Positions 21,595 to 45,677 of a DNA stretch of 64,000 nt are shown here, piece by piece; position 1 is the stretch's first letter, and each line of letters begins with the position of its first letter. The stretch covers positions 3,398 to 67,397 of the forward strand of contig CAYPJE010000003.1 in the NCBI GenBank assembly GCA_964410945.1. Direction: 5' to 3'. A program made the position numbers and the translations under genes. The notes under the pieces were generated by a model, which was given only the letters and a program-made list of their open reading frames with translations, searched no databases and was not told where the DNA came from. Source of the DNA: an uncultured bacterium. GTDB lineage: Bacteria; Fidelibacterota; Marinisomatia; Marinisomatales; TCS56.

Positions 21595-21596
21595 CA

Positions 21597-22351: not shown

Positions 22352-22372
22352 CAATGGAATTCCGTTCTATCG

Positions 22373-23943: not shown

Positions 23944-24023
23944 GGAATTATCCTCTGTTATTTGTTTCCCCGGTCAGACCGGGATAGACCTGAAATTATT
24001 TTTGCTATCGGATAAATGCTGAA

Positions 24024-26159: not shown

Positions 26160-26331
26160 TATTAAAATTTAAGCACTAATGCTTATTCAATGTAAAGACA
26201 GTAAAAAATAAAAGTTCGGGAAAATAATTTAAAACACTAATAATGCCTTGAAGGTCGCCAAACAAAGACCTTCAAGGTTTCAAAAATATTGTGTCACCCA
26301 CCAGTAGGGAAATGAAATCTGTCAATAATTC

Positions 26332-26362
26332 GCAGGGATAAGATTCTGAATCTTATCCCTGC
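26332..26362 (-). terminator. 31-nt palindrome (family B) immediately 3' of the 26374..29037 gene
   Basis: GCAGGGATAAGATTC-t-GAATCTTATCCCTGC. Sequence-related to the palindromes at 30056..30085 and 38489..38518. No strong T-run follows. Confidence 0.45.
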
Positions 26363-26373
26363 CAACAATAATT

Positions 26374-29037
26374 TCAATTACCAAACCAGTAAACGAATTT
26401 CACCAATAATATATTGGTAGGCTCAACCCGGATCAGATCACCATAATTATCGAAAACCGGTCCTCTGGAATGATTTATCACGTAATTAAAATCGTTCTGA
26501 TCGAACTGCCACACCAGGTAGAGGGCCGAACCGGGCCGGAATTCCCAGCGTAACACAGTGTTCAATTGCATTGAGTTATAATAGAAATCAGGATTGGTAA
26601 TAGAAAATTCATCAGCGGCAGAATCGCCGTCGGGATCGATGATATAATCACCGGTTTCATCCTGTTCAATTGTACCCGCATCGGTTCCGTAGGTATCAAA
26701 TTCATAGGAAGCCGGACGGGCCAATTGCTTGAACTGGCTGTAATCATAATCGGACACGTAGGGACACACTACCAGTTGGAGGGTCAATTCCGGAGAGAAG
26801 GTCCATTCCAGCCGTCCGGTGGCCCAGTGGGTTTTACCACTGAGATCGGAGAAAATATACCGGGTTCCAAAAGTTTCAGCGGCCAGATCATCTTCGATTG
26901 CATCGACATACTGGTTGGTGCGGTTACTGAAATCCAGACCGGTAGATAACTCAATATTGATATTCGACTGCGGTTTGTAGGCCATGGAAATTTCCGTATT
27001 CAAATCACCGGCCCCGGAATTATCCCGGGTTTTCCTGATATATGATCCGAACGACAGCTTCTTCCGGCTGTTCGAATTAAGTGAAAATGACAACTCTGTA
27101 TCCGCCAATCCGCGTACCAGCGGTCCGCCGCGTGTCAGGTGATCATCATAATGGGGAACCGACTGCTCGAACCTGAGATTCATATTCCATAGATTGGTGA
27201 AGTTGGCATAATATGACAACAATCCGTATGCCCAGACGAGGTCGCCGCCAAAATTCCAGGCCGGGAACCAGCCGGCCAGAAGCTGCCAGTAACGAATTTT
27301 TTCACCAGGATCGGTTTGGCGATATTTATACAAAATTCCCCAAGAGCGGTAATCGGCACGAACCTCAAAGCCGATATCATTGGGTTCAAACCCGGGACTT
27401 ACCTCGGCATAGGTGAATGATCCCTGGTGCCGGCCCTTGTTTTTCATCAGGGTCATTTCAAAGGAATGTCCGCTCAGAGCAGTGGCCGTTTCATCCAGTT
27501 CCATATAATCGGCATCGGGCCGTTGAAAATAACGGGGACTCGCCTCCTGGGCTTCGGTGATCACTGCCGCGCTGCCGTTTAGATAACTTTGTACGTAAAC
27601 ACCCGATGCAACCCAGTTTGGAAACTTGTTGATCCGGTGCTCAAAATCTATCCCGGCCAGAACGGCATTTTCCCGAAACTGATCTTCCAGTGCCGGTGTG
27701 GACAAGTTCCGGTTCACCATGGCACCATAGGCGCCCAGGTAACTGTTGCCGGCATTAAAATCCTGTTTGACGCGGCCCACCAGCGAATTCGCCAGTGGTT
27801 CCACTATTTCCTCCTTTTCCACACCAAGCGTATCGGTATAAACAGCTGATTCATTCATCGTGACGGCATCGAAGAAGCTGAGCGAGAGCCCCCGGTTGGT
27901 TTTCCCGCTGATCTTACTGGCTGCGGCGATCCTCGTCTTATCGGGATAATCTGAGTAATCCTCGGCACCATCGGAAATGCTGCCCTGAGGTGTCCTTCCT
28001 ACTCGCCGGGAATAAAACATAATCGGCAGGTTGGAATAGAAAGAACGGGTACTGCCGAAATCGATTATATCCACGCCTTCAACAAAGAAAGGCCGCTTTT
28101 CCACATAGAAGGTTTCATTGGCCGTCAGATTCACCTGGGCCGGGTCGGCTTCAACCTGGCCGAAGTCAGGATTGATGGCTGATGTGAGTGTAAAATTCGA
28201 TCCCAGACCGATCTTAAGATCGGCACCAATTCCACCGGTCAGATCGTATTCAGAATAGAAAGGATTGTCATTGTCTTCGGGAACATTGATTGCGCCACCT
28301 GAGGCATACGGCAGTACTTCAATCCTTTTGACCGGCGGTGGATGCACCAATCCCCGGAGCGTTCCATAAGCCGCAACCTCGCTGTTGGATTCCACCGGAA
28401 GATGGTTCCAGTAATCGTGCTCGTCATTACGGGAAATATAGCGATAGAATTGGATTCCCCATTCCGGCTGGGCAATGGTCTGATCGTACCGCAGCTGGGA
28501 GAATGGAATTCGCATTTCCACCGTCCAGCCCTCTCCATCGATGACCGCAACGCCGTCCCAGACCGCATCCCAGCTGGCATCACTGAATTCATCGTTGTAC
28601 CAGAGCATGTCCTGCTTTGTACCCAGTGGCGTGAGGTAAAACGAGAAGCCGGTGCGTTTATCGTTATAACTGTCTATTCCGACACCGAATTGATCCGACA
28701 CTCCCCGCGTGTCCCGGCGCAGCAACTGGGCCGAGATCAACTTGGGATCGTCGTACATCCGGGCGGCAATATAAATATAATCATCGTCGTATAGCACCCG
28801 GGCCTCGGTCGGCTGGATACCCGGCGCACCGGACTCCGGCATATACTGGGTGAACTTGTCGGCCACCACCGCTGACTCCCAAACAGGGTCATCCGGGACG
28901 CCATCGATGACCGGTGGAGTATCGATCTTTATGATAGTATAAATCCGGTTCTGGATATCTTCTCCCAGCAAGGCGACAACCGGCAAAATTATTAGTATTA
29001 TTTTTTTTAACGGTCCCATTACTTCCCCCTTAATCAA
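26374..29037 (-). CDS. large secreted/outer-membrane protein with CBM9-like N-terminal domain (DUF5916-like)
   Basis: Signal peptide. IDGVPDDPVWESA...F.QY.P motif typical of carbohydrate-binding family 9-like domains. Long beta-rich remainder ending ...FVYWFGN. Confidence 0.6.
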   Translation of the reverse strand: MIKGEVMGPLKKIILIILPVVALLGEDIQNRIYTIIKIDTPPVIDGVPDDPVWESAVVADKFTQYMPESGAPGIQPTEARVLYDDDYIYIAARMYDDPKLISAQLLRRDTRGVSDQFGVGIDSYNDKRTGFSFYLTPLGTKQDMLWYNDEFSDASWDAVWDGVAVIDGEGWTVEMRIPFSQLRYDQTIAQPEWGIQFYRYISRNDEHDYWNHLPVESNSEVAAYGTLRGLVHPPPVKRIEVLPYASGGAINVPEDNDNPFYSEYDLTGGIGADLKIGLGSNFTLTSAINPDFGQVEADPAQVNLTANETFYVEKRPFFVEGVDIIDFGSTRSFYSNLPIMFYSRRVGRTPQGSISDGAEDYSDYPDKTRIAAASKISGKTNRGLSLSFFDAVTMNESAVYTDTLGVEKEEIVEPLANSLVGRVKQDFNAGNSYLGAYGAMVNRNLSTPALEDQFRENAVLAGIDFEHRINKFPNWVASGVYVQSYLNGSAAVITEAQEASPRYFQRPDADYMELDETATALSGHSFEMTLMKNKGRHQGSFTYAEVSPGFEPNDIGFEVRADYRSWGILYKYRQTDPGEKIRYWQLLAGWFPAWNFGGDLVWAYGLLSYYANFTNLWNMNLRFEQSVPHYDDHLTRGGPLVRGLADTELSFSLNSNSRKKLSFGSYIRKTRDNSGAGDLNTEISMAYKPQSNINIELSTGLDFSNRTNQYVDAIEDDLAAETFGTRYIFSDLSGKTHWATGRLEWTFSPELTLQLVVCPYVSDYDYSQFKQLARPASYEFDTYGTDAGTIEQDETGDYIIDPDGDSAADEFSITNPDFYYNSMQLNTVLRWEFRPGSALYLVWQFDQNDFNYVINHSRGPVFDNYGDLIRVEPTNILLVKFVYWFGN

Positions 29038-29038
29038 A

Positions 29039-29890
29039 TCAACCGGACTTTGGTGGCAGTTGATTCAGCGATGATACATTTAACAATTCGTCATTGGCAC
29101 GTTCGTAAAATTCGGATACTATTCTTTCAACATCATCCAGGGTGTATTTCTCCCGCAGGCTGTGCATTATTTCATCTACGGCAATTTCCGTATTGATACC
29201 ATGATGATAGAGATATGATAATACCGGACTCCTGGTATAAACAGCCTGATAGATTTCACCATCATTCGAGATCAGCGCCACCAGGTGCTCTGAAGCATCC
29301 ACTACCATATTCATCCAACTGACACCCCAGCGGGAACTGAAACGGTCATCACGGCTTTCCGGAATAATTTTAGCGCCGGGGATGTCCAACGGTGCATAGG
29401 ATTTGATCAGCACCACCAGTCCCCGGTCGATTTCCGCCCGGACTACATCCATCAATTCATCATAGAACGTCGGATCGGCATCGATAACAGCAATCTTCTT
29501 GGCATTACGCAACATGGAGCGGAACTGGTCATACAGTTGTTCCAGCGACTGAATCTGGTAAACGTTGTTATCCCAATCGGCGGTTTTGATATCGGCCAGC
29601 GCCTCCTCGGCATTTTTCCTGGACTGCATAAAATTGCGTTCCAAGCGGTCCAGCATGTCACCGTAAGGTACGGCCCGGTACTGGCGGGTTTTACTGCGGT
29701 CGGTCAGGACAGCGCCCTGCTGCTCCAGCATTTCCAAGGCCTTATAAGTGTTAGCCACCGGCTTGCCAATCGCCTTGGCAATGCGGTAACCGGTGGCCGG
29801 GCTTTCAGCCACCAGGAAAGTATATATCCGGGCCGCCAGTTCGGTAAACCCCAGACTGACCAAGTTGTGGATTATTTTGTCTTTAGGCAT
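29039..29890 (-). CDS. TrmB-family transcriptional regulator
   Basis: N-terminal wHTH LVSLGFTELAARIYTFLVAESPATGYRIAKAIGKPVANTYKALEMLEQQGAV. Confidence 0.8.
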   Translation of the reverse strand: MPKDKIIHNLVSLGFTELAARIYTFLVAESPATGYRIAKAIGKPVANTYKALEMLEQQGAVLTDRSKTRQYRAVPYGDMLDRLERNFMQSRKNAEEALADIKTADWDNNVYQIQSLEQLYDQFRSMLRNAKKIAVIDADPTFYDELMDVVRAEIDRGLVVLIKSYAPLDIPGAKIIPESRDDRFSSRWGVSWMNMVVDASEHLVALISNDGEIYQAVYTRSPVLSYLYHHGINTEIAVDEIMHSLREKYTLDDVERIVSEFYERANDELLNVSSLNQLPPKSG

Positions 29891-29903
29891 ATTTTACTCT
29901 TTA

Positions 29904-29923
29904 TTAGTAGTGTATACTACTAA
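29904..29923. promoter_or_regulatory. perfect 8-4-8 inverted repeat upstream of trmB-family gene (candidate operator)
   Basis: TTAGTAGT-gtat-ACTACTAA, starting 14 nt upstream of the start codon at 29890. Confidence 0.35.
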
Positions 29924-30055
29924 TATTAGAAATAAATAAAAACTCAAACAAGTGAATTCTGCGTTTCAACAAATATCTATTCTGAGCAACCTTGAAGGTA
30001 TAATAAAACTAAATGCCATCCGCCATCTGGTGAATGGCATTAAAATATGATAATT

Positions 30056-30173
30056 GTAGGGACAAGATTCGAATCTTGTCCCTACCTGAAAATTATATTC
30101 CGATCAACTCCTTGACAATTTTATCGGAATCGGTTTTGATCTTGTCGTGGAGTGAATCGCCGTGGGAGTCCAT
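30056..30173. repeat. 118-bp direct repeat, left copy (terminator palindrome plus orphan 3' fragment of the fumarate hydratase beta gene)
   Basis: 114/118 identical to 38489..38606 by hand alignment. On the minus strand it encodes MDSHGDSLHDKIKTDSDKIVKELIGI-stop, preceded by an in-frame TGA. Confidence 0.9.
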
Positions 30174-30225
30174 TCAGGAAAATAACCCGATTTATTTATT
30201 ATCCCATTTCCTGTTAATCCGACTG

Positions 30226-30849
30226 TTAACTAATCAAATTCAGGCCTTCTGTTGCTGATTCATCACCGGGATTATATAATTTCACTTTTTGAAACAATAC
30301 TTTTGCCCTGATATAATTACCCTGAAAATAATTTGTCCATGCCAACATTAGCAGTCCATCATATCCGAACGGATAGAGATCGACAACTTTCTTAAATAGC
30401 GAATAGGCGCTGTTATAATCTTTTCGATCATAGTAAATCACTCCAAGCCGGTACATGACGGTTGTATTCTTCGGATTTATTTCCAAAATCTTTAGATATA
30501 AATCAATGACCTCATCCCATTCACCAAGTGCTGATTTGGGAAGAATTAAACCTAGCCTTCCTTCTTCCGAATATGGTAACAGTCTGTGTGCAATGGAATA
30601 ATACTTTACGGATTCCTTAAATAAACCAGCATTATAATTAAGCCATCCTAACCGCAAGTTGATTTCATAGGAATCCTCGTCATAGACTTCTTTAAGAACT
30701 CCTATTGAACCAGAATAATCCCCTTCTTTTTCCATTCGATAGCTATTTGAGAATGCTGATTCCAATGCTTCCTGGCTGTGTTGCGCATTGGCTGTTACGA
30801 CCACAAATAAGACTATAAAAATACTTATTATTCTTTTCAAAAATTCCAT
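30226..30849 (-). CDS. secreted tetratricopeptide-repeat protein
   Basis: Signal peptide IFIVLFVVVTANA. Repeated TPR-like units (YNSAYSLFKKVVDLYP, GNYIRAKVLFQKVKLYNP). Confidence 0.7.
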   Translation of the reverse strand: MEFLKRIISIFIVLFVVVTANAQHSQEALESAFSNSYRMEKEGDYSGSIGVLKEVYDEDSYEINLRLGWLNYNAGLFKESVKYYSIAHRLLPYSEEGRLGLILPKSALGEWDEVIDLYLKILEINPKNTTVMYRLGVIYYDRKDYNSAYSLFKKVVDLYPFGYDGLLMLAWTNYFQGNYIRAKVLFQKVKLYNPGDESATEGLNLIS

Positions 30850-32174
30850 GATAAACCAACGGTTAATGTCTGTTTAATGTAATCATAATTTATTGAATTA
30901 ATTTCTGTGTCATCATCGGTATAGGTCCGGTAGGTTTCTACAATATCCTGGTTAATATAACGAAATACTAAGTACATCTGTTCTCCCAGGGGGAAATACA
31001 GGCTCCCGATGAATTTCTGATTTGATTTCCCGGGAAAATTTGAAACCACAAAGCCGGCCGGTTCAATGAAATTTTCCATTTTTCCATTTAGGTACTGACT
31101 GTAAACATGGAGCTTTCCAAGTTGCAGCCCTCCTGATATACCTAAAGTATTTATCGCCAGATCACCGGTGGAAGTTGTCTTGAAGTAGATTCGAGGTGTA
31201 AAATATAGATTCGTATTAGAGAGGGGGTAATAAGTCAGCCAAGTAGATACTTGTATAAAATCAGTATCATATATATTAGCATAATTAACTTCCATGCCTG
31301 GCGACAAATTTCTCCAATGAAACCAAATCGATCCGGATAGCACACAATCGGTATAACTGTCGGTTATTTCACTATAATAGATGGTTGAATCCGATAAATA
31401 GATTCCATACAGATAGGTAATGTCACCTAGGATGAAATTAGCTGAAGAAGCAGCATTCAACCGTTTGCCCAGACTTAATTGCGGATTTACATAGTATTGG
31501 AACTGCGTGGTTTGAGAAGAATAAGTCTTTTGATCTCCGCGGTTAATCTGCTGCTGGCGATTGACACCAATCAATGTCAGATTATGATTAACGGAAAGGT
31601 TTGGCGATACACGATGACTCAGATCACAAGATTCGAAATGGTAATCTTTGAGAATGAAAGCCTGGCCATATTCATTTTCATTCAGCACAAGCTCATCGCC
31701 AATATTGCTGGCCGCCAGATTATCAAAGTCCGGATTCAGGCCATACCCGCCTTCGACAGCCAGCCTGGTCAACTCAGGAATATCGTAGCCAATCTTTTCC
31801 TGGAAACCAAGTGAAAAATCAACTGCCACCTCGGATGCTTTACCCGGTCTCCCCCCCCACAATAAACTGTAATACAGATACTCCTGTAGCCATTCAAAAG
31901 ACTTGTCCCTTTCCCAGGCTTTCAGGAGATATTCCGCCGCAATCCGATACTTCTTCAGCTTATAATAGGCAATACCGGTCCTGGCCTGCAAATAGAAAAA
32001 GTCGATTCCCTGACTTTGGGCCGCAATTGACAGTTGAATCAGTTCATCCCATTTCTTCTGGAAAAACAGTTCATATGATTTTTTGTCAACTTCGACTGTG
32101 CTTAACCTCGTCTGTGACGAAACCATTCCGACCACCATCAGCAGGAAAGCTATTAACCACCATCGTTTGTACAC
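30837..32174 (-). CDS. secreted protein with TPR-like N-terminus and putative outer-membrane beta-barrel C-terminus
   Basis: Signal peptide. N-terminal helical repeats (YRIAAEYLLKAWERD). C-terminal 300 aa rich in alternating aromatic/polar strands, ending LTVGLSWNF (aromatic terminal residue, OMP-like). Confidence 0.5.
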   Translation of the reverse strand: MYKRWWLIAFLLMVVGMVSSQTRLSTVEVDKKSYELFFQKKWDELIQLSIAAQSQGIDFFYLQARTGIAYYKLKKYRIAAEYLLKAWERDKSFEWLQEYLYYSLLWGGRPGKASEVAVDFSLGFQEKIGYDIPELTRLAVEGGYGLNPDFDNLAASNIGDELVLNENEYGQAFILKDYHFESCDLSHRVSPNLSVNHNLTLIGVNRQQQINRGDQKTYSSQTTQFQYYVNPQLSLGKRLNAASSANFILGDITYLYGIYLSDSTIYYSEITDSYTDCVLSGSIWFHWRNLSPGMEVNYANIYDTDFIQVSTWLTYYPLSNTNLYFTPRIYFKTTSTGDLAINTLGISGGLQLGKLHVYSQYLNGKMENFIEPAGFVVSNFPGKSNQKFIGSLYFPLGEQMYLVFRYINQDIVETYRTYTDDDTEINSINYDYIKQTLTVGLSWNF

Positions 32175-34378
32175 TTTATTCCGATCCTTGTATTATCAAA
32201 TTTCACTGAAATAGTGAAAACACCATCCGGACTGATATCTATCTTGATTTTATAGTCTTTTACCGTTCTCCCCAGGATTTTCTTAAGAATGATTACATCC
32301 ATTTCAATATTGTCCGAGGCTAGGATATCACCTGCTTCCCTGAATATCAGTCTATACTCTGCTCTTAGAAACAAAATCAGTGGCGCAATAAAGTCTTGCA
32401 AAATCTTAATCATACCCCCGAACATCATATTCACCGGAATATGATCCTTGATTTGACTATTGGGCAGATAGCCCAAGGGAATCTTAAACAACGACACAAA
32501 AAACCAGTAAAGAATTGTATATTTGTCCCCAATGAAATTGGTAAAATAATGTAGGTCGTTATTATTATATAGATAACCCACACCACTTTCCGATTCTGAG
32601 CGAATATAGGTATTGTTATAGGGATCGGTTTCAACGGTCCACAGATAATCACCGGAAAGTTTATTCCATCGATGTTTATCGGAATTCACTTCCGCCTGAA
32701 CTCGCAACCGTTGCCCGGGAATAAAATGTAAAACCCGGGTAATGATTTCATTCTTTACCGGGTTGGCCACTGCTTCACCTTTTTGGGGATTCCGGAAGGC
32801 CTTTAATTGAAACCCATGCTTTGCTTTAAGTAAGAACTGTCCGAAGGGATAGTCAATTGTGGGCGATCCAATATATGGTGTGGCCTGAAATTGAAAATGG
32901 AGGTGGGGATAGGGCGACCGGCCAGAATTTCCACAGCGTCCCAGAAGCTGGCCCTGTTGCACCTTATCACCAACCTCGACCACCAGGGATTTGCATTTTA
33001 AGTGACAGAGCTTTGAATACAGACTATCGGAATGTTTGATGATAATTGTGTTCCCCCAGTTATTCCTTGTGTTTATATCACCAATCGTATTATCATGAAT
33101 ATTACTTACAGTTTCAACGATGGTACCGTCAGCGGGTGCGACAACGGCTTTACCATAACAGAAATAATCCTCGGCGAAATTTCCATGGTCCCTATATTCT
33201 TTCCCGTTACTATCGGAAATAATAAAATCCCAGGCATGGCGCCATTCCCCTTGATGGGTATATTCGCCTTCATGAGCCTGGCTGATAGTCCATTCGCCAA
33301 AGAAAGGGAGCGAAAACGAAATCGGGTAGGCAGCTGGAAAACGTTTGGTATTACCGGCATAAAGATAAAAATTCTTCTCGGGCTTGCCTACCTGCACTGG
33401 TGTTTCAACCAAATAGTTGGATTTGTTGTCCCGTAGTTTCAAGGCATATAAAAACATTAAGACAACCATATTAAAAGGCAGGGAATACGGAGAAAGTTTA
33501 AAGAACAGAAGCAACGTCTGTGAACCAATGGTTACCAGGACCACAATGGGTAGCAGTAACGCTATCCACCCGAAACTTACACGATTAGGTACCAGGAAAT
33601 ATCCACCCAAGGCAATGGCTGTTAATATGTAATTAAAACCAATAAACGTATAGCTCAGCGAATTAAACTCGATGCCAACGATAATGTAGAACAAATAGGC
33701 AATTGAATATCCAAATATGGAAAGTACAAACGTGATTCGGGAATAAATAAGTAATCCGATGGCAATTATTATCCCGGCCAGTAACTGAAACTGGAAAAAA
33801 ATGGCACCCAGCGAATAAAAGTAAATACCAAAAAAAGATGACCCGATTGATTTTTCTAGCCATTCATAGACATTAACAAAAAGAGGTCCGCCCAGGGCAT
33901 ATAGTTCGTTATAAAAGTAAATACCGCGCTCGCTGATGTGGAGTAGTGTTAAACTGCTCCCGGATAAGACCGCAATCCAGATGGTTAATAAAAAAGGAAC
34001 GCTAAGAAAAGGTAAGCCGTATTTGCCTAGCAAACCCTGAAAAACAATAGTAAGAAAGAAGCAGATCACAGCTGTAATGGCAATATACAGGTAGAGTGGC
34101 AGGGAAGGCTGGTACAATAGACCAATCCCCAATCCGGTTAACAGTGCATTGAAACCATAGACTCCTGATGTGATCAAATATTTATTATACCCCAGCAACC
34201 AGGCCAATAAATTGGCTATCAACACTGAAAGTAAGCCACCTATCCCAGCCCCATAATCGAAAAAACTTATTCCCATTAATAAAAGGGCCAGCAATTTCGA
34301 AGTGGAAAAAAATACCTGCGAATAACTGTTCAGGATAGAGTAAATGAAATTGTTTATCTTACTGTGGCAGTTTCTCAT
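32153..34378 (-). CDS. urea-transporter-like membrane domain fused to M23 metallopeptidase domain
   Basis: N-terminal about 330 aa is polytopic, with SYSQVFF and GVYGFNALLTGLGIG motifs resembling the UT family. The C-terminal half has the M23 motifs HAWDF (HxxxD) and SPYPHLHFQ (HxH). Confidence 0.7.
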   Translation of the reverse strand: MRNCHSKINNFIYSILNSYSQVFFSTSKLLALLLMGISFFDYGAGIGGLLSVLIANLLAWLLGYNKYLITSGVYGFNALLTGLGIGLLYQPSLPLYLYIAITAVICFFLTIVFQGLLGKYGLPFLSVPFLLTIWIAVLSGSSLTLLHISERGIYFYNELYALGGPLFVNVYEWLEKSIGSSFFGIYFYSLGAIFFQFQLLAGIIIAIGLLIYSRITFVLSIFGYSIAYLFYIIVGIEFNSLSYTFIGFNYILTAIALGGYFLVPNRVSFGWIALLLPIVVLVTIGSQTLLLFFKLSPYSLPFNMVVLMFLYALKLRDNKSNYLVETPVQVGKPEKNFYLYAGNTKRFPAAYPISFSLPFFGEWTISQAHEGEYTHQGEWRHAWDFIISDSNGKEYRDHGNFAEDYFCYGKAVVAPADGTIVETVSNIHDNTIGDINTRNNWGNTIIIKHSDSLYSKLCHLKCKSLVVEVGDKVQQGQLLGRCGNSGRSPYPHLHFQFQATPYIGSPTIDYPFGQFLLKAKHGFQLKAFRNPQKGEAVANPVKNEIITRVLHFIPGQRLRVQAEVNSDKHRWNKLSGDYLWTVETDPYNNTYIRSESESGVGYLYNNNDLHYFTNFIGDKYTILYWFFVSLFKIPLGYLPNSQIKDHIPVNMMFGGMIKILQDFIAPLILFLRAEYRLIFREAGDILASDNIEMDVIILKKILGRTVKDYKIKIDISPDGVFTISVKFDNTRIGIKCTNDGG

Positions 34379-34387
34379 ACCGGCGGG

Positions 34388-35734
34388 TTATTTTTTGGGA
34401 TTGTATTCACCTTCCGTTATCGATTCCAATTTTTCCCTATGCCTGATAATATGAGTTTCCCCACTCAAGTCTATTAGTACCACATTGGGCCGGAAAGTAA
34501 TAAACTGCATCCATTGGGTTACATTATATGCTCCGACCCGTTCAATGACCAATTGATCGCCGACATTGACCAATGGGAAATTAATTGAATCACGAATCAC
34601 ATCAATATTCATGCATAAAGGACCATACACAGTTGTTTCCTCCTCATATTTAGAAACATTGGTCGTAGGACAGACCGACATGTTGTACCAGAACGAGGTA
34701 AAGAGAATATTAACGCCAGCGTCAATTACCATTAAACGTTTTCCAGTACTCGAACGTTTATTGGCCAGTACTGTGGTCAGTATATACCCGGCGTCATCGA
34801 TTAATGCCCGTCCGGTTTCCAGAAACAGGACCGGCAATTTTTCATGAGGTATTTCGGAAGCAATTATCCCATTGGTAATTGCTTCTGCATATGCATCAAA
34901 TGAAGGGCAGGTTTCAGAACCGGGCATGTAGGCACCTTTTAAGGTGCTTTTGGACGCAAAACCACCACCCAGATCCAGGTACTTTATCCAATGATCAAAT
35001 TTCCGGTAGGTTGCCATAATCAGGTGTGATAGCTTTTGTGCTGCTATCGCATAGGCAGACGTTGACAGAATATAGGTTCCGATATGCGTATGCAGGCCGA
35101 TCAGGTCAAGTTCATCAGCTAGCATTATACGGTTGATAGCATTCCAAGCTTCACCATTCTCATAATTGAAACCAAACCGATCCCACTTAGGAGAAATGCC
35201 TGTGTCCATATTGATACGGATGGCAACCCGCGCTTTTTTTCCACAATTTCGGGCAGTATCAATTAATAAATATAATTCATCAAAATGGTCAATGTGAACA
35301 CAGGCATTGTTGTTTAGCGCCATAACTATATCTTCGCCGGTCTTATTAGGCCCGTTAAAAAGGATTTTCGAACCGCACACACCCAGTCTCAGCGCTTTTT
35401 CAAATTCATATCTGGAAACAACTTCAGCCCAGGAACCCTCTTCATGATAGATACTGCAAACGGCATCCAGGTAATTTGTTTTATATGACCAGGCAAACTG
35501 GACCTTGGGATATCTGGTTTCAAAGGCCCTTTTGGCATCATTAAATGTTTCCCGGATAGTTTTCTCGGAAAATACAAAGACTGGAGATCCATATTTTTCG
35601 ATTAGGCTTGAGACAGGTATGCCATCAACATCAGCAATTATCTTTTGACGCGCCCCAAACCCAACCTTGTCCGGTACACCAGCGGTTATTTTACTGATGA
35701 CAGGTTTTTCATATACTAATTTCTCCATGGTCAT
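34388..35734 (-). CDS. PLP-dependent decarboxylase, Orn/DAP/Arg decarboxylase family (fold type III)
   Basis: FAWSYKTNY (PLP lysine region), HIGT, LDLGGGF, ETGRALI and a C-terminal beta-barrel region GAY, as in LysA/SpeA-type enzymes. Confidence 0.8.
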   Translation of the reverse strand: MTMEKLVYEKPVISKITAGVPDKVGFGARQKIIADVDGIPVSSLIEKYGSPVFVFSEKTIRETFNDAKRAFETRYPKVQFAWSYKTNYLDAVCSIYHEEGSWAEVVSRYEFEKALRLGVCGSKILFNGPNKTGEDIVMALNNNACVHIDHFDELYLLIDTARNCGKKARVAIRINMDTGISPKWDRFGFNYENGEAWNAINRIMLADELDLIGLHTHIGTYILSTSAYAIAAQKLSHLIMATYRKFDHWIKYLDLGGGFASKSTLKGAYMPGSETCPSFDAYAEAITNGIIASEIPHEKLPVLFLETGRALIDDAGYILTTVLANKRSSTGKRLMVIDAGVNILFTSFWYNMSVCPTTNVSKYEEETTVYGPLCMNIDVIRDSINFPLVNVGDQLVIERVGAYNVTQWMQFITFRPNVVLIDLSGETHIIRHREKLESITEGEYNPKK

Positions 35735-36795
35735 ATTTCCTTATTCATCGAAATAGCAGCAAATTTTTCAACATCAACAATCATGTCATAGGAATAGCGT
35801 ATAAACATTTTTCCTTTCTTGTATTCATGCATCGGATTAACCTTCCAGCCTAATGCCAGTTTTACCAATGCCTCCGGAATATTCTGTCCCGCTCCAACAG
35901 CCAGATACACCCAGGCCGGAATCCGCGGATTTATTTCAATCAGGTAATAATCATCTGATTGTGTTTTGATTAATTCCAGTTCCACCCCTCCCTTCCATCT
36001 TGTCTGTCTTATGATTGATTTTGTCAACGCTATCATTTTTTCATCAGACAAAGTAATCCCGCTCCAGGCCTTACCCAGCTCGGTAATATATTGCTTTCGC
36101 ATAGGTACGGCCGCAATGGTGTTCCCATCACCATCACCAAGGGCAACCACATTCACTTCCGTCCCTTCAATAAAATCCTGCACAATGACCGGTAATCCCC
36201 ATTTACCGGAAATTTTATCAAAGGCCTGCTTGGCCTGTTCCTCATTTTTTACCTTGCAGGCATCATAGAATTTTCCTTTAAGCATCACCGGATAATCAAA
36301 GATTTCTTCTATGTCCGAAATCTTGTCTTTGCTGGCCAATTCCATAATCTCTGGAGTCATGATATTATATTTTTTCCCAAAATCAGATAGTTTATCCTTC
36401 TGTCTTTCCTCAAATTGATTTAAGGTTGGCAAAAACGTATTTATCCCCTGATTTGCCAATCGTTTTTCATTAATGATAAATGAAAATAGTTCGGCGTCAA
36501 AATTGGGTATAAGCACATCTATGTTTTCCTGTTGGTGGATATATTCGATACGTTCCACCAATTCATCTGAACCTGAACTCGGGTATGGTATCTTAAAAAT
36601 CCTGTCACATAAGTTTACCATGTAAATCCCCGGCTCCATGTTCTCGTAAACCAGGCCAATTATCCTGGTCTCAAAATCACACGATTCCTTGATACCACGA
36701 ATTACCGGAATACCGGGGCCGGGATTATCCGTATTGTTCAACCCGGTTACCGCTATTGTTATCTTCTGCTTATTATCTGAATTCAAGTTGCCCAT
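35731..36795 (-). CDS. ATP-grasp family ligase
   Basis: FDYPVMLKGKF, VIVQDFIEGTEVNV and YLIEINPRIPA motifs characteristic of the ATP-grasp fold. ATGA overlap with the decarboxylase gene. Confidence 0.8.
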   Translation of the reverse strand: MGNLNSDNKQKITIAVTGLNNTDNPGPGIPVIRGIKESCDFETRIIGLVYENMEPGIYMVNLCDRIFKIPYPSSGSDELVERIEYIHQQENIDVLIPNFDAELFSFIINEKRLANQGINTFLPTLNQFEERQKDKLSDFGKKYNIMTPEIMELASKDKISDIEEIFDYPVMLKGKFYDACKVKNEEQAKQAFDKISGKWGLPVIVQDFIEGTEVNVVALGDGDGNTIAAVPMRKQYITELGKAWSGITLSDEKMIALTKSIIRQTRWKGGVELELIKTQSDDYYLIEINPRIPAWVYLAVGAGQNIPEALVKLALGWKVNPMHEYKKGKMFIRYSYDMIVDVEKFAAISMNKEI

Positions 36796-37036
36796 CCTGT
36801 ACGATTATCTGGTAATACTTCAACAATGTCACAAATTCGTAGAAATCTTTTTCAAAGATCAGGTCGTCAATATTATACCGGGATAGGAAATCCTGTTTGA
36901 TTTCGTCCGGTTTTTGACCCAGATTGATCATTTTCACCAATTCCAGGGCCACCGGATTCAAATTAAAGGAATCCCCAGTCTTTGAATTGAACAGGAAACC
37001 GTTTTCGCTGATATTCACTTCGTTTGATATTTTCAT
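36773..37036 (-). CDS. PqqD-family (RiPP recognition element-like) small protein
   Basis: 87 aa. The pattern ...FLFNSKTGDSFNLNPVALELVKMINLGQKPDEIKQDFLSRYNID...DFYEFVTLL resembles PqqD-like peptide chaperones. Overlaps the ATP-grasp gene by 23 nt. Confidence 0.6.
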   Translation of the reverse strand: MKISNEVNISENGFLFNSKTGDSFNLNPVALELVKMINLGQKPDEIKQDFLSRYNIDDLIFEKDFYEFVTLLKYYQIIVQDGQLEFR

Positions 37037-37274
37037 CTCCTTGATAATCCTACATTATTTATTCACATTATTCGCATTTATAATCTTGAGGAATTCGGTT
37101 CCTTCTATGAAGTTTGACAAACAAATCGGTAAAATATTCCAATTTATCATTCTTGCGTTCTCATACAATAAATCGTTTGTCAAAACCAGTTGCCAGATTC
37201 AATTAATCCATTGATTCATTTCAGAAATATGGAGTTGTGCTTAAGCTGGACATCATCTGGAACGAATATACCCA

Positions 37275-38029
37275 CTACATGCAGTTTCCATTATTGGTAA
37301 TATCATTTTCATATTCAATCACAAAGGCATAAAAAGTGGCCTTTTTCCCTCCCCGCAGATCACCGAAGCGGACTGGAAAATCGGCCCAAGTGGAAACGCG
37401 GGCAGATATTTCACCATAGCACATAACATCCTGATTTCCGTCGGTTGCATTGTTGGGCTGGTCATTGTTTCTGGGATCGGCATTGTAAACACCATCATCC
37501 AAATTTTTACACCAGTTGGTATAGTCCATACTGTTTCCGCTCAGCCAACGCCAACCTTCGGCCGGTGTGGATTCCCGGGAATTATCATACTCCTGAAAAC
37601 CGCCTATCGGAGGGCCATTGGTGACACCAGTCTCTGGCCAGACATACCAGTAGTCAGCATGATCAACCAGTGAAAATACAAATTCATTCTCATCCTGTGT
37701 TTCAGGGCAAACCAGATAACCACCGCTGATTTGAGCCAGAGAAGCCGCACATAGCCATTCCACACCCCCATTTGGAATTTCGATCAACTCATAATAGTGC
37801 GTGTCTCCATTTTCATTGGTAAAGCAGACCGCCTTTTTCTGATGTAGCTGCCGATTTCGTCCCAACCTCGGTATACATTCTCAAAACTTGATTTGGGATA
37901 AAAATCAGTAATATCCAGAGATGAACTTACTTGCGTAATAAGATCCTTTTTTACTTCCCTGTAGAAATAATCACCAGGCTCAGTGCAGAAAACATAAGCA
38001 GTATTCTTTTCATCACTCAATTCCTTCAA
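37275..38029 (-). pseudogene. C-type-lectin-like domain gene, apparently frameshifted and lacking an ATG start
   Basis: ORFs 37784..38029 and 37275..37865 both start at TTG and overlap in different frames. One extra A in the A5 run (plus-strand T5 at 37834..37838) would fuse them. CTLD motifs WRWLSGNSMDYTNW and DVMCYGE...WADFPV. Confidence 0.45.
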
Positions 38030-38488
38030 CTGAGGAGTTTATCCTCGCTCTATACCTTAGACGTCATTTCAAGGAAAAACCTGTACATAATTGATACAGA
38101 GGTATATAACCAAAAAAGCATACTGTGGTGCAACGACCGGCCTAGCAGTCCAGCCTGGCTGTGAAATAACCAGCAAAAATGAGGTGTAATACTATCCCAG
38201 CTAATATGCTTCCAGGGGATCTCTATCCACCTGGCATTGAAAGAACTTCAATCAACCCGCTAAAAATCTGCTAATCCTATCTATTTTTACCTATATCAGT
38301 CATAGCATCTATAGAAATCGTAACTAAACTGAGGGATAATAATTGATGGGGAGTGTTATATCAATACATCAAATAAAATCTCTAATACAAAAAATTACTG
38401 ATACCCGTATAGCACAATTCCATCGCCTATACTTTACCCCTACGATGGAAATAGCAGAGGCCGATTAATAATTACTCAGATGAAATTC

Positions 38489-38606
38489 GTAGGGACAAGA
38501 TTCGAATCTTGTCCCTACCTGAAAATTATATTCCGATCAACTCCTTGGCAATTTTATCGGAATCGGTTTTGATCTTGTCGTGGAGTGAATTGCCATGGGA
38601 ATCCAT
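38489..38606. repeat. 118-bp direct repeat, right copy (terminator palindrome plus functional 3' end of the fumarate hydratase beta gene)
   Basis: See 30056..30173. Contains the perfect 30-bp palindrome GTAGGGACAAGATTC/GAATCTTGTCCCTAC and the last 26 codons plus stop of the 38526..39104 gene. Confidence 0.9.
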
Positions 38607-39104
38607 GGTTACCACACAGGGGAAATCCTTCACTTTCAGGACCCACATGGCTTCCGGTACGCCGAATTCCTCCAGCTTGATCACGTCGGTAACTTTTTCC
38701 ACCGACTTGGCCAGCAGGGTGGCGGCGCCACCGATGGCATGGAGGTAAACGGCACCTGATTCCTGCAGCCCTGCCAGAGTCTTGGCACCCATTCCGCCTT
38801 TCCCCATCACACCGCGCAGTTTATAATCTTTGATCACGTCAGCCTGGTAGGGCTCTTCGCGTATTGACGTTGTAGGCCCGGCCGCCACGAATTTCCATTC
38901 GTCACCTTCCTTGGATACCACCGGTCCGCAGTGATAGATCACCGAACCTTCCAGCAGGCTACGGACCTCCTCAGGCTGTTCTTCAATCAGCCAGGCATGG
39001 GCCGCATCACGACCAGTGACCATGATACCATTCAGGGCAACTTCATCACCAACCTTCAGCTGGCGAACATCTTCCTCATTCAGCGGTAATTGCATCCTAA
39101 TCAT
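38526..39104 (-). CDS. class I fumarate hydratase / Fe-S hydro-lyase, beta (C-terminal domain) subunit
   Basis: 192 aa. GRDAAH, GPVV, AAGPTTSIR and MGKGGMG motifs of the Fumerase_C/TtdB type. Confidence 0.85.
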   Translation of the reverse strand: MIRMQLPLNEEDVRQLKVGDEVALNGIMVTGRDAAHAWLIEEQPEEVRSLLEGSVIYHCGPVVSKEGDEWKFVAAGPTTSIREEPYQADVIKDYKLRGVMGKGGMGAKTLAGLQESGAVYLHAIGGAATLLAKSVEKVTDVIKLEEFGVPEAMWVLKVKDFPCVVTMDSHGNSLHDKIKTDSDKIAKELIGI

Positions 39105-39984
39105 AGCTCACCTCGCTTTCCCTGAAGGTCATTTCCCGGTGCCGGTCGGCCCAGCACATGTAGGCTATCGAGACAAAAAATGAGGCCGGCAGCCGATGGA
39201 CCTGGCCGATTTTCACGCCCAGTACGGTGGTCTTGCCACCGAATCCCAGGGGGCCGATCCCCAATTTGTTCAGATCGGTAAACAGCCGTTTTTCAAGTGC
39301 ATCCAGCTGTTCATCGGAATTACTGTCATCCAGTTTGCGGAACAATTGCTGCTTGGCCATGACCATACCTGTGGCCCGGTCACCGCCGACGCCAATACCC
39401 AGTACACCGGGAGCGCAGCCCAATCCCTGGGCCTTGTTTACCGCATCGATAATGCATTTGTACACGCCTTCAAGATTCCGGCCGGCTTTCAGGCCGCTGT
39501 CCGGGAGCTTGTATTGTGTCGACACATTCTCACAGCCACCACCTTTCAACGCCAGCTGAACCCGGATAGCCGGTTCGTCCCATTCATCAAAATGGATGTA
39601 TGGTGACATCACACCGGTATTATCACCTGAATTCTTACCGGTCACCGAATCAACGGCATTGGGACGCAGGTAGGCTTTGGCGGTTGCCATTTTAGTTGCT
39701 TCGACAATGGCGGATTCAACCTTCCGCAGGGATACACCCTCCGGAATAGTGACGAAATGAATATTAGTGCCCGTATCCTGGCAGATCGGAGTACTGTCAT
39801 CACGAGCCATATCCACATTTTTCAGCATCGATCCCAGGACCGATTTGGCAGCGCTGTCCTGATCCTCATTGTCGCGGGCTTCTTCCATGGCCTTAATCAC
39901 ATCTTGTGGAAGCTGCGTGGATGTACGGCGGATCAGTTCAAGAACCGCGTCCTGAAATTTGTCCACGTTCAGTTTGAAACTCAT
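39097..39984 (-). CDS. class I fumarate hydratase / Fe-S hydro-lyase, alpha (N-terminal domain) subunit
   Basis: PICQDTGT cluster-ligand motif. KGGGCEN. 8-nt overlap with the beta subunit gene. Confidence 0.85.
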   Translation of the reverse strand: MSFKLNVDKFQDAVLELIRRTSTQLPQDVIKAMEEARDNEDQDSAAKSVLGSMLKNVDMARDDSTPICQDTGTNIHFVTIPEGVSLRKVESAIVEATKMATAKAYLRPNAVDSVTGKNSGDNTGVMSPYIHFDEWDEPAIRVQLALKGGGCENVSTQYKLPDSGLKAGRNLEGVYKCIIDAVNKAQGLGCAPGVLGIGVGGDRATGMVMAKQQLFRKLDDSNSDEQLDALEKRLFTDLNKLGIGPLGFGGKTTVLGVKIGQVHRLPASFFVSIAYMCWADRHREMTFRESEVSYD

Positions 39985-40013
39985 ACTATCCCCTCTCTTT
40001 GGATTAACTACTG

Positions 40014-41047
<1,034 letters not shown>

Positions 41048-41051
<4 letters not shown>

Positions 41052-42883
41052 CCTACAATCTTTTCTACTGCTTCGATTACATCGCGGGCCAGAAATGGAC
41101 GGCCGCGGACGATATTCAACTGCAGCGGATCAATCAGATATTCCGACCGAATGATCTGTGCCAACTGTCCCAGATTGATTTCCGGGATCAAAACATGTTT
41201 GAATCCGGCCAGCACATCACCTAGGTTCCCGGGTAGTGGATTAACCCAGCGCAGGTGCACATGGCTGACAGCATGCCCTTTGGCCTGCAGTTTCTGCAGG
41301 GCTGCCCGGCAGGCACCGCGCGTGCTGCCCCAACTGAGGATCAGCAGATCACCACTGTCTTCACCAATCACCCGGCAGGGCTCGACATCATCAACCACAT
41401 TGGCAATTTTTTCCGCCCGCAGGGAAATCATCAGGTGATGGTTGTCGGGATCGTAGTTAACATTACCACTGCCATCTTCCTTCTCCAATCCACCGATGCG
41501 GTGTTCCAGTCCCGGGGTACCGGGAATGACCCATTTCCTGGATTTCGATTCCGGGTCCCGTTTGTAGGGCAGGAACGGTGGATCGGTTACATTAGTCAGC
41601 ATGGGTGGTTCGATCTCCGGCAGATCGTCAACATCAGGGATTTTCCATGGTTCGGAACCATTACCCAGATAGCCATCGGTGAGCAGCATGACCGGGGTCA
41701 TGTATTTAACAGCGATCTGGGCCGCCTCGAAAGCGGCATAGAAACAGTCACCGGGGGAGCGGGCCGTGATCACCGGGATCGGTGCCTCACCATTACGTCC
41801 GTAAATGGCCTGAAAAAGATCGGATTGCTCAGTCTTGGTTGGTAATCCGGTTGAAGGACCACCGCGTTGGACATTGACAATCACCAGAGGCAGTTCGGTC
41901 ATTACCGCCAACCCCATGGCTTCGGTTTTTAGAGCAACACCGGGGCCTGAAGTTCCTGTGGCTGCCAGACATCCGGCATAGGCCGCGCCGATAGCGGAGG
42001 TGATCCCCGCAATCTCATCTTCGGCCTGGAAAGTACGGACCTTGAAATTCCTGAAACCAGCCAGGTAATGCAGAATATCGCTGGCGGGTGTAATCGGGTA
42101 GCTGCCATAAAACAGCGGCAAACCCGACTTGGCGGCAGCGGCTACCAATCCCAGGCTGGTGGCATAATTACCGCTGACATTGCGATAAGTACCGGCCGGC
42201 AGTTTGGCTGCGTCAACTTTATAGTTTGTAGTGAAAATCCGGTTGGTCGAACCATAATTGTAACCGGCATTCAAAGCACGGGTATTAGCCTCAACAATGT
42301 CCGGTTTACTGGCGAATTTGGATTTCAGCCATTCGATGGTCGATTCAATTGGACGGTTGTACATCCAGTACAAAAGACCCAGAGCAAACATATTTTTTGT
42401 ACGCTCAACGATCTTGGATGACAGGCCCATATCTTCGCAGGCATGGCTTACCAGGCGACTCATATCAATCGGGTAAACAATATAATCTTTAAGGGTTTCA
42501 TCTTCCAGCGGATTAATCTCATAGCCGGCCAGCTTGAGGTTCTTGGTAATGAAACTGGAGGTATTAATAATTATAATTCCTCCACGAACCAGTTCCTTCA
42601 TATGTACTTTGAGGGCTGCCGGATTCATAGCCACCAGCACATCGGGATCATCACCTGGCGTGAAAATCTCCTGGGAGCTGAAGTGCAGCTGAAAAGCACT
42701 TACACCGGCCAGCGAACCCGCGGGGGCCCGGATTTCGGCCGGATAGTCAGGCAGAGTACTGAGATCGTTACCGATGATGGCAGTGGCACTGGTAAAACGG
42801 TCACCGGTGAGCTGCATCCCATCACCGGAATCACCGGCAAACCGGATGGTTACATCATCGATCTGTTTTAGGGTTTTAGGCAT
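41048..42883 (-). CDS. korA: 2-oxoglutarate:ferredoxin oxidoreductase alpha subunit (fused gamma-alpha type)
   Basis: 611 aa. N-terminal gamma-like domain (IRFAGDSGDGMQLTG). The central alpha domain is YPITPASD ... VNVQRGGPSTGLPT. Confidence 0.85.
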
Positions 42884-43127
42884 ACAATATTCCTTATCAG
42901 GGGTTCAATTTCGGGTAATTCAACTAATGGCAGATAGGGCAGGTTCCACCTGTCAACATAGAAAAAAATTCGGTGTGTATACAGACATGGTCTGATGTTC
43001 AATAATTGTCGTATTCAAAGTTACTCTGTTAGTTTTATGTTAGGCAATCATATATGGTTTTATTTTAACATAAATCGTGCCAATTGCTATTAAGCTTACA
43101 AAGTCGTAAACTTGGCTTGGAGGTATT

Positions 43128-43931
43128 ATGTTTGACTTAAAGGATCCGCAGCAAATAGCTATGTTTCCCGAACTTTCGAAAAACACCGCTTTACCTTCAA
43201 TTGCGAGTCAGCCCCAGTTTGAAACAGCCCTGGCCAATCTGATCCGAATCAGCGATCTGGGTGCCTTTGTCCAACTGAATATCAACGGCATTGACAAAGG
43301 TTACAGTCTGAATGTAAATGAGCTGGAGATTCCGCCCGACTTCTTAAAGGACAACCCCTCCCTGACACCACTGTCTGTTCAATTGTTTCCTGCTCCGGTG
43401 AGGCGGCAACTGCAGAAACTGGTCTATGATATTAAAGCCTATTTTACTGCTGAGAATTCTCTCCATACCACCTTTGGCCCCTTTTTATACCGCCATCGAT
43501 TCAGTCACTGGAACCGGTTTCTGGAACTGGAAAAAGGCCGGCTGATTAAAACCGTTAAGCGTCTGCTGGGCAAAAAGACCTACTCCCGCTTCTTCATTGA
43601 TCAGTTCAAAGCAGGTTATGACATGTTTCAATCAGCAGCCGATATTACTGCTCCCTGGGAATTCCGGAGCAAGATTACAATGGCGTTAATTCGTGATCAG
43701 CGCCGGAGACTGGAGCAGAAAGAATTTGAGTTGAACAATCTCAGTCCCACCGATATCGACTTTCCGATGAAAATGATGATAATAAAAACACATCATATCC
43801 CCCTGAAACTGGATGATTACCTTAAACAGATAAATATCATTTCGTTTTTCAAAACCATCCATATCGAACACCTGGCTGATGTTGAAATCAATACCCTGGA
43901 TGATATCAGACATCTGTTTTCTCAATTTTAA
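43128..43931 (+). CDS. hypothetical protein (no recognisable domain)
   Basis: 267-aa ORF with an ATG start preceded by GGAGG. No motif that I recognise. Confidence 0.5.
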   Translation: MFDLKDPQQIAMFPELSKNTALPSIASQPQFETALANLIRISDLGAFVQLNINGIDKGYSLNVNELEIPPDFLKDNPSLTPLSVQLFPAPVRRQLQKLVYDIKAYFTAENSLHTTFGPFLYRHRFSHWNRFLELEKGRLIKTVKRLLGKKTYSRFFIDQFKAGYDMFQSAADITAPWEFRSKITMALIRDQRRRLEQKEFELNNLSPTDIDFPMKMMIIKTHHIPLKLDDYLKQINIISFFKTIHIEHLADVEINTLDDIRHLFSQF

Positions 43932-43984
43932 TTTTATACTTAAGCTCCCTCCTGTTTAATTAACCAACTCCGGCCAATTTGACC

Positions 43985-45031: not shown

Positions 45032-45329
45032 CATCCTGAATCCGCTTAATATTTTAGTGGATTAATGAATTTTACTTGCCCTGTATTTTCGTAATGATGT
45101 ATGCTCAAACCAAGAAGAGTGCCGATTTTGAAAGACGACATACGACTCTGCTTTTCCGGTATACGATTTAAGGATTGATTTCCTTCCGGACCGCTCATTT
45201 CGATTAAGCAGTTACTGACTAAGAAGACGAATTTGCAGATTGGCTGAATTGCTCTGGTCAATTCAGCTGGTGAAACAATCACTGGTAAAAACCGGTGATT
45301 AAAATAACCCTACTGCGAAGGAGCATACG

Positions 45330-45599
45330 ATGAAGCTTAACTGCTGGGAGGTGAATCGCTGCGGTCGAGAACTAGGGGGTAAAAACTCCAAGGAACTGGG
45401 TGTTTGCTGCTCTGTAAAATTTACTGCTTTTAATGGCACAAATAACGGATTCAACGGTGGAAGGTACTGTTGGGCCGTAGCCGGATCATTAAAAGACACA
45501 CCCAAAGATTGTATCCACAATCCCCCGGGTAATGATTGTACCGAATGTAATTTTTATTCCAAAGTCAAGGAGGAAGAAAGTATAAACTTCATTGCCTGA
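45330..45599 (+). CDS. small cysteine-rich two-CW-type protein
   Basis: 89 aa. NCWEVNRCGRE ... GRYCWAVAG ... CTECNFY pattern. SD GAAGGAG upstream. Confidence 0.55.
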   Translation: MKLNCWEVNRCGRELGGKNSKELGVCCSVKFTAFNGTNNGFNGGRYCWAVAGSLKDTPKDCIHNPPGNDCTECNFYSKVKEEESINFIA

Positions 45600-45677
45600 C
45601 GTACCCCGAATTCGATCCATTCCGAATATGACGCAAGTAACCTCCAACCAAAATTCATTAAGAGCAAAAGGTGTATC

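Follow-up and report, generated by a model that had tools for sequence, protein, structure and literature searches.

A putative decayed genomic island framed by copies of the fumB 3' end in a Marinimicrobia chromosome

The island behind fumB and the repeat at its ends

The window analysed here, a 64-kb stretch of contig CAYPJE010000003.1, comes from an uncultured bacterium whose FumB relatives identify it as a member of the Marinimicrobia (Candidatus Neomarinimicrobiota). Directly downstream of fumB it contains an AT-rich segment with a six-gene operon, held between two copies of the fumB 3' end, which we read as a putative genomic island. The features that define it are, in the order in which they are met on the minus strand:

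fumB, 38526..39104, minus strand: beta subunit of class I fumarate hydratase; target gene, and last in the korA-korB-fumA-fumB block
Right (gene-proximal) repeat copy, 38489..38606, minus strand: fumB end (38526-38606), spacer (38519-38525) and palindrome hpR (38489-38518)
Frayed 9-nt extension of the right repeat copy, 38480-38488
Inserted island, 30174..38488, minus strand: 8,315 bp, GC 0.404, every gene on the minus strand
Left (distal) repeat copy, 30056..30173, minus strand: orphan fumB 3' fragment, stop codon, spacer and palindrome hpL (30056-30085)
Frayed extension of the left repeat copy, 30047-30055

The copies at 30056-30173 and 38489-38606 form a direct repeat that is identical at 114 of 118 positions in an ungapped alignment (4 mismatches), and a repeat finder lengthens the pair to 127 nt at 94% identity (30047-30173 and 38480-38606). 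Read on the minus strand, each copy runs from the final 26 fumB codons and the stop through a spacer of 7 nt to a perfect 30-bp palindrome, GTAGGGACAAGATTCGAATCTTGTCCCTAC. The first-pass annotation of this stretch had described a direct repeat duplicating the fumB 3' end, with its palindrome, its 4 mismatches in 118 nt and its orphan copy, and the alignment confirms that description. The palindrome occurs exactly twice within the 64-kb window and was matched in none of 100 shuffles, even when 3 mismatches were allowed; folded as RNA, it gives a 13-bp stem.

All four mismatches are located within the gene-proximal 59 nt of the repeat, and the other 59 nt (spacer and palindrome) are identical. 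The edges of the repeat fray: one has three mismatches in its outermost 16 nt, and at the other a mismatch or indel falls in the 9 nt that follow the palindrome. The four differences between the 118-nt copies are as follows (left/right copy, plus-strand coordinates):

30115/38548: Val/Ala
30158/38591: Asp/Asn
30162/38595: silent, His
30168/38601: silent, Asp

The 192-residue fumB open reading frame (ORF) at 38526-39104 (Pfam Fumerase_C, E 1e-50) has its genuine end in the right copy. On the left lies an orphan fumB fragment of 26 codons, with a TGA immediately 5' of its ATG, which differs from the functional copy by two silent and two replacement changes. At three of the four mismatches, the functional copy shares the state of three outgroup loci (L009, L010 and L011) and it is the orphan that is derived; the replacements in the orphan (Asn to Asp and Ala to Val) hit residues that are conserved in L009-L011. 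Judged from these sequences, the orphan looks unconstrained. The proposal of the first-pass annotation that the segment was acquired, with att-like repeats regenerating the fumB 3' end, is supported by this arrangement, in which the right copy completes fumB and the left one is an orphan. The orphan fragment (30096-30173, minus strand) also constitutes a 26-codon ORF with an ATG start, a predicted ORF only, 52 nt past the last gene of an operon encoding a PqqD-type peptide-binding protein; its position beside a PqqD-bearing operon is almost certainly a coincidence.

The interior is, as had been noted by eye, richer in AT than its surroundings: the island has a GC content of 0.404, compared with an average of 0.490 +/- 0.044 for core genes and about 49-50% in the flanks, and the GC content at third codon positions (GC3) is 0.33-0.51 in island genes against a core mean of 0.53.

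Independent sequencing runs contain the same DNA. Logan unitigs obtained through exact-protein look-up match the island and both flanks at 99.98-100%, and their breakpoints lie exactly where 31-mers are common to both repeat copies. FumB itself, queried with two alternative starts, gave no exact-protein record. The unitigs that cover the region are:

L089, window 38518..30128: covers the whole island
L001, window 30083..19039
L006, window 49984..38561

In these independent unitigs, the island is joined on one side to a fumB-like fragment bearing the private variants of the left copy, and on its other side to the palindrome. The island is not an artefact of one assembly. The same unitigs indicate that the window population is nearly clonal (99.98-100% identity over >10 kb).

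Unitigs that break inside the repeat are compatible equally with an integrated island and with a circle plus an empty site. The real molecules could accordingly have been an uninterrupted fumB-hairpin-trmB chromosome and a separate circle, composed of the cassette and an attP site, that were mis-threaded through the repeat during assembly, and the breaks in the 31-mer unitigs fit both forms equally. We consider this extremely improbable. The longest identical stretch between the copies is only 59 nt, so that normal reads and larger k-mers resolve them: reads of 100-150 nt and k-mers above about 61 tie the private mismatches to the flanks. The source contig is 138.6 kb long, and the island and its flanks co-occur in the same runs. 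Moreover, an element in this state would still carry a fumB-derived att site, and the biology would be the same.

The cargo operon and its neighbours within the island

From the fumB side inwards, the island is composed of the following parts:

38030..38488, no strand: 459 non-coding bp, the island end nearest to fumB
37275..38029, minus strand: C-type-lectin-like pseudogene in two overlapping ORFs (37784-38029 and 37275-37865; Lectin_C, E 0.12)
36773..37036, minus strand: PqqD-family small protein, 87 residues, gene 1 of the six-gene cassette
35731..36795, minus strand: ATP-grasp ligase, 354 residues
34388..35734, minus strand: pyridoxal-phosphate (PLP)-dependent decarboxylase with the ornithine/diaminopimelate (DAP)/arginine decarboxylase fold, 448 residues
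32153..34378, minus strand: urea-transporter-family membrane domain followed by an M23 peptidase domain (UT-M23) and a C-terminal region without assignment, 741 residues
30837..32174, minus strand: 445-residue protein without a Pfam family, with N-terminal repeats resembling tetratricopeptide repeats (TPR) and a beta-rich C-terminal part ending ...GLSWNF
30226..30849, minus strand: TPR protein, 207 residues, the final cassette gene, its stop codon 52 nt before the left repeat

Together, the genes from PqqD to TPR form a six-gene operon that is conserved in about 80 metagenome loci (L093-L172) at 41-78% amino-acid identity. In these native cassettes the GC content of the operon equals that of its flanks (0.31-0.49, and about 0.36-0.44 in the closest loci); no bracketing direct repeats were found in the 6 native loci scanned for them, and no tRNA genes in the 11 scanned for those. 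The UT-M23 protein has 3,461 homologues at E <= 1e-30, and its best matches with a name all belong to the Bacteroidota, at 63-68% identity (Draconibacterium, Prolixibacteraceae, Mariniphaga, Maribellus and Dysgonamonadaceae). In many low-GC genomes the cargo belongs natively to the chromosome, and among its named relatives the closest are Bacteroidota. A second version of the cassette (L178, positions 1-7122; Logan SRR31802798, 12 samples), with 69% nucleotide identity and a GC content of 0.43, is its closest relative and comes from the same sample series as the window population. No fumB-like repeat is present at the ends of the L178 unitig, the flanks of which were not recovered.

The function of the six-gene operon appears to be uncharacterised, and a full-text literature search found no published account of this gene combination. 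The solved structure nearest to the decarboxylase is that of FslC, an N-citrylornithine decarboxylase (7kh2, E 5e-59), and the protein also matches BtrK (2j66/7ru7, E about 5e-23). The cargo resembles the butirosin (BtrI/BtrJ/BtrK) and rhizoferrin (FslA/FslC) systems in combining an amide-forming, ATP-dependent ligase with a PLP enzyme of the DAP-decarboxylase fold, whose substrate in those systems is the amino acid after ligation. It differs from them in that the partner is a PqqD-family protein and not an acyl carrier protein, and the ligase is an unassigned ATP-grasp enzyme and not a non-ribosomal-peptide-synthetase-independent siderophore (NIS) synthetase. A cluster for ribosomally synthesised and post-translationally modified peptides (RiPPs) would place a precursor-peptide gene beside a PqqD-type recognition element and a modifying enzyme. 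Here, PqqD-like and ATP-grasp genes are both present, and no conserved small ORF that might encode a precursor peptide was found 5' of PqqD in the window or in 18 related loci. With low confidence, we propose that the ligase, the FslC/BtrK-like decarboxylase and the PqqD-like partner might make a small, amide-linked, decarboxylated amino-acid conjugate, which the membrane and TPR proteins might then, with equally low confidence, handle at the envelope. We infer that the 445-residue protein is an outer-membrane protein; an AlphaFold single-sequence model of it was unusable (predicted local distance difference test score, pLDDT, 32) and was set aside. This widespread operon is the part of the island most deserving of follow-up and a candidate for functional study. 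Its presence here also documents flow between phyla, of a whole Bacteroidota-type six-gene operon into an uncultured and ecologically important marine lineage, the Marinimicrobia.

The remaining part of the island had been described in the first-pass annotation as a decayed lectin-like gene beside the eroded end of a once larger element. The decay is real. The gene is split by a frameshift near residue 70, intact homologues have 247-253 residues at 70-76% identity, and the two window ORFs align to residues 41-72 and 70-248 of one of them. The larger element finds no such support: no remnant of one was detected in the 459-bp stretch, which holds no family-matching ORF and has no similarity to phages or plasmids by blastn; a Pfam search of stop-to-stop and six-frame fragments of 37990-38530 gave no integrase remnant, and Rfam returned nothing below E 0.89 anywhere on the island. 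The intact lectin homologues are stand-alone genes in mutually unrelated contexts, with no integrase nearby. The lectin gene and the non-coding DNA lie outside the conserved cassette and have no counterpart beside native cassettes, which makes the island a mosaic.

The site downstream of fumB and its hairpins

Our comparison of the site relies on relatives that are only 83-88% identical in FumB, the best matches being L009 (88%), L010 (87%) and L011 (strain TCS56, 83%). The korA-korB-fumA-fumB block is conserved in related loci. A homologue of PBP1A directly follows fumB in ten of them (among these L009, L010, L012-L014, L016, L018, L024 and L025), and a homologue of the peptidase C1 gene (window 22675-23943) is located further downstream in L009, L010 and L012. 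No trmB, DUF5916 or island gene was found at the fumB-PBP1A position in the related loci. Since fumB is followed by PBP1A in the relatives, the lineage-specific DNA in the window extends over about 12.3 kb (26.2-38.5 kb) and includes trmB and DUF5916, making up two layers. The features beyond the left repeat are:

26374..29890, minus strand: trmB-family regulator (29039-29890) and CBM9/DUF5916 protein (26374-29037), absent from this position in all related loci
26332..26362, no strand: third palindrome, hp3, on the minus strand GCAGGGATAAGATTCAGAATCTTATCCCTGC followed by GAATTAT
24024..26159, minus strand: PBP1A (transglycosylase/transpeptidase), the far edge of the variable site

Both trmB and the DUF5916 gene have a native composition (GC3 0.56-0.58), which, unlike that of the AT-rich island, points to an old insertion or to relocation within the genome. 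The TrmB homologues found were an identical protein and only one other, at 63%; the latter is encoded on another contig of the metagenome-assembled genome (MAG) of L009, beside unrelated genes and not near fumB.

The related loci vary at or near this position in other ways as well. In L012, about 6.3 kb (about 7050-13400) is inserted between the PBP1A and peptidase C1 homologues; in L024, about 1 kb (10580-11580) with a 152-residue ORF separates fumB from PBP1A; and in L011 the downstream DNA (9838-19834) is entirely different, with a DUF4268 gene and a TRAP transporter.

The third palindrome was found in a sensitive search with the repeat. It lies 11 nt past the DUF5916 stop codon and 172 nt before the PBP1A start, and differs from hpL and hpR in two compensated stem pairs and one extra central base. 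These three are the only perfect palindromes with arms of at least 10 nt in the window. On the minus strand, fumB and hpR are followed by the island, then by the fumB fragment and hpL, by trmB and DUF5916, and finally by hp3 and PBP1A: two blocks, each closed by a copy of the hairpin, with the compositionally newest adjoining fumB. The sequence that hp3 shares with the repeat copies is only about 37 nt long, and the block it bounds is the one of native composition. A single insertion event, as assumed in the first-pass annotation, is not supported in view of hp3, which points to a reused site and suggests two successive insertions in the 12.3-kb region. A similar hairpin is found in L010, where a 30-nt perfect palindrome with the same 10-nt outer arms, TGCAGGGACAACTCATGAGTTGTCCCTGCA, is located about 60 nt after fumB and before PBP1A. 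Elsewhere in 2.2 Mb of fetched loci, the motif recurred in one short, ordinary terminator only, at window 62676. This hairpin (62676-62695, AAGGGACAATTTATTGTCCCTT followed by T8) shares its 8-nt arm motif with the fumB palindromes and is probably an ordinary terminator; the arm motif is therefore not unique to the island.

The palindromic hairpin is most likely a terminator-like stem-loop of fumB transcription that now also closes the island operon, given its position 7 nt after the stop codon, its compensated symmetry and the perfect palindromes that occur directly after fumB in other phyla (L030, L078 and L086). These last cases also weakened the idea that the central symmetry of the palindrome implies protein binding. 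A separate stem-loop (30003-30041, AATGCCAT...ATGGCATT), located between trmB and the left repeat and followed by a T-run, is closer in appearance to a canonical terminator than is the palindrome.

The repeat might also have arisen in place: foreign DNA would have entered by illegitimate recombination, and the fumB tail with its hairpin would have been duplicated separately, through template switching or unequal exchange, and kept as a terminator-like hairpin for each operon. The hairpins do sit just past gene ends (at a distance of 7 nt from the fumB stop and 11 nt from that of DUF5916), their compensated changes preserve symmetry and so suggest a structure under constraint, and the palindromes after fumB in other phyla fit this role. 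We nevertheless find such a duplication very improbable. A terminator copy needs no 81 nt of fumB coding sequence; a fresh copy gives sharp and initially identical ends, whereas frayed edges around a perfect core are observed; and two separate rare events would be required for each layer.

Beyond a terminator-like role, the palindrome could also be the recognition and crossover site of a recombinase encoded elsewhere in the genome, with integrase-less blocks (first trmB-DUF5916, then the Bacteroidota-type cassette) stacked behind fumB and each closed by a hairpin. We rate this as improbable. If true, it would amount to a chromosomal, hairpin-guided system of module accretion in the Marinimicrobia, with a logic like that of pdif or IMEX modules and a different site.

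Mode of insertion and comparison with known elements

We favour the interpretation that the segment is a decayed, integrase-less genomic island in a Marinimicrobia chromosome, inserted in the Campbell manner at a reused site directly after fumB, and put its probability at about one half. In the proposed sequence of events, the trmB-DUF5916 block would have entered before the island, at this same hairpin. The chromosomal copy would then have recombined with a circular DNA equipped with a fumB tail and hairpin of its own, as an attP-like site; by such Campbell-type integration, fumB would have been restored intact, the other copy stranded as an orphan beyond the island and the older block displaced outwards. 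The recombinase gene, expected beside the gene-proximal repeat, would have been lost later, and what is left in its place may be the lectin gene with its frameshift and the 459 non-coding bp. Three features lead us to favour Campbell-type integration followed by recombinase loss: the pattern of fraying, the derived state of the orphan and the second hairpin-bracketed block. In particular, a perfect 59-nt core with frayed edges fits recombination between two pre-existing similar sites (attP x attB) and not a fresh target duplication. As between an integrase and homology, the mechanism is something we infer.

Homology-facilitated illegitimate recombination (HFIR) and Campbell-type insertion by single crossover are established from studies of natural transformation. 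They need no recombinase of the element's own, and the duplicated copies may differ by the divergence between donor and recipient. Insertion by homology without a site-specific recombinase is the main rival to integration at an att site, and could have followed either of two routes. A circularised fragment from a sibling strain, composed of the cassette and a piece of fumB, may have entered by a single RecA crossover; or a linear fragment anchored in fumB may have undergone illegitimate joining at codon 167 of that gene, with the fumB tail and hairpin of the recipient staying downstream. Neither a recombinase gene nor a remnant of one was found, as such routes predict, and the 3.4% that separates the copies in a nearly clonal population is what donor-recipient divergence would give. 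The left repeat boundary is sharp and falls inside coding sequence without functional logic, and the fumB tail carried by the element must derive from a very close relative of the host. We still regard insertion by homology as unlikely. It does not predict repeated use of the same hairpin, and the older trmB-DUF5916 block, also bracketed by hairpins, would call for another, independent coincidence at these same few bases. In addition, the recipient's original end should look ancestral, yet the orphan is derived at the three informative sites, although decay after insertion could also have this effect.

Several observations weigh against the integration and recombinase loss that we favour. In Pfam and NCBIfam scans, none of the island ORFs matched an integrase, transposase or excisionase, in agreement with what had been read from the ORF list alone, and no recombinase or mobilisation gene was found in the 20 other window ORFs scanned. 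The cassette was found on neither viral contigs nor plasmids: the UT-M23 protein had no relative among viral contigs, and the ATP-grasp ligase gave only distant matches (<30% identity) in plasmids. The exact palindrome had no match in metagenome and viral contigs, and the 34-nt fumB-tail pattern had none in viral contigs. No related element with a recombinase and no attP-bearing contig was found in the collections searched. An empty site in which trmB directly follows fumB, which the first-pass annotation had expected in related genomes, was not found in a search through TrmB homologues, and in its place the ten loci described above have PBP1A. The hairpins lack a T-run, and a consensus scan calls none of them a terminator. 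A global alignment of the hp3-PBP1A and L010 hairpin-PBP1A intergenic sequences was not significant (z about 1.8), so that on sequences this short the link between the two hairpins is suggestive only. Finally, the fumB tail of the element is 97% identical to the host gene, and the nearest sampled relatives are far more divergent and lack the palindrome; the element must therefore have picked up or evolved its site within this lineage, and the homology-driven routes account equally well for such a tail.

Cis-mobilizable elements (CIMEs) derive from ICEs (integrative and conjugative elements) or IMEs (integrative and mobilizable elements), and the first to be described lie at the fda 3' end in Streptococcus thermophilus. 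The island is CIME-like in that its att direct repeats lie at the 3' end of a protein gene with a housekeeping role, here fumB, and in carrying cargo only, without genes for recombination, conjugation or mobilisation. It differs in that no remnant of an ICE or IME module was found and no integrase-bearing partner element is present, and in its uncultured Marinimicrobia host, its fumB target and its long repeat (118-127 bp). CIMEs are decayed elements that keep their att sites without recombination genes, and they occur in tandem with other elements at the same site (PMC7563491), as may be the case here, where the third hairpin bounds trmB-DUF5916. Similarly, for the tycheposons, remnants of which lie in Prochlorococcus islands, newer elements push older ones outwards and degenerate, integrase-less remnants occur (10.1101/2020.12.28.424599). 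The arrangement behind fumB would resemble that of such remnants, with the presumably newer block adjoining the target gene and the older one farther out. As in integrase-type islands at tRNA, tmRNA and protein-gene 3' ends in general, a second copy of the target's 3' end lies at the far side and the composition is atypical. In contrast to these islands, no tyrosine recombinase or fragment of one is present, the target is a protein gene with a downstream hairpin and not a tRNA gene, and no mobile relative was found in viral or metagenome collections.

Three other kinds of element were considered and rejected. The attC sites of integron cassettes have imperfect stems with extrahelical bases and GTTRRRY core sites, and are accompanied by IntI and attI nearby. 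An integron cassette was ruled out by the absence of an integrase from the ORFs scanned, the perfect and unbulged palindromes and the lack of a GTTRRRY core. As for integrative mobile elements exploiting Xer (IMEX), which use the host XerCD and are flanked by a dif-like site of 28 bp located at the replication terminus, the palindrome is by eye unlike the dif consensus, and there is no change of sign in GC skew at the hairpins. A transposon or insertion sequence (IS), which would bring a transposase, terminal inverted repeats and a short duplication of its target site, does not fit either: no transposase is present, the only inverted repeats at the ends are the palindromes, and the duplication is 118 bp long.

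The island thus adds a new and fairly ordinary, decayed case to a known kind of element, from a phylum that has been little studied. Its insertion scars are still legible, at a site beside genes of central metabolism (kor-fum) that appears to have been used repeatedly. Screening other Marinimicrobia genomes for the fumB tail and hairpin could reveal active mobile elements, which are almost unknown in the phylum.

Elsewhere in the window, positions 16240-17828 encode an AbiEi antitoxin/AbiEii toxin pair with a GC content of 0.33-0.37 and a GC3 of 0.29-0.32, well under core values. No flanking direct repeats were found around the pair, which is probably another horizontally acquired piece. At about 43000-44000, gene orientation flips: genes lie on the minus strand from about 22.7 to 42.9 kb (as do most of those farther left) and on the plus strand to the right. 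GC skew changes there from negative to about zero or positive; it follows the coding strand and is unrelated to the island.

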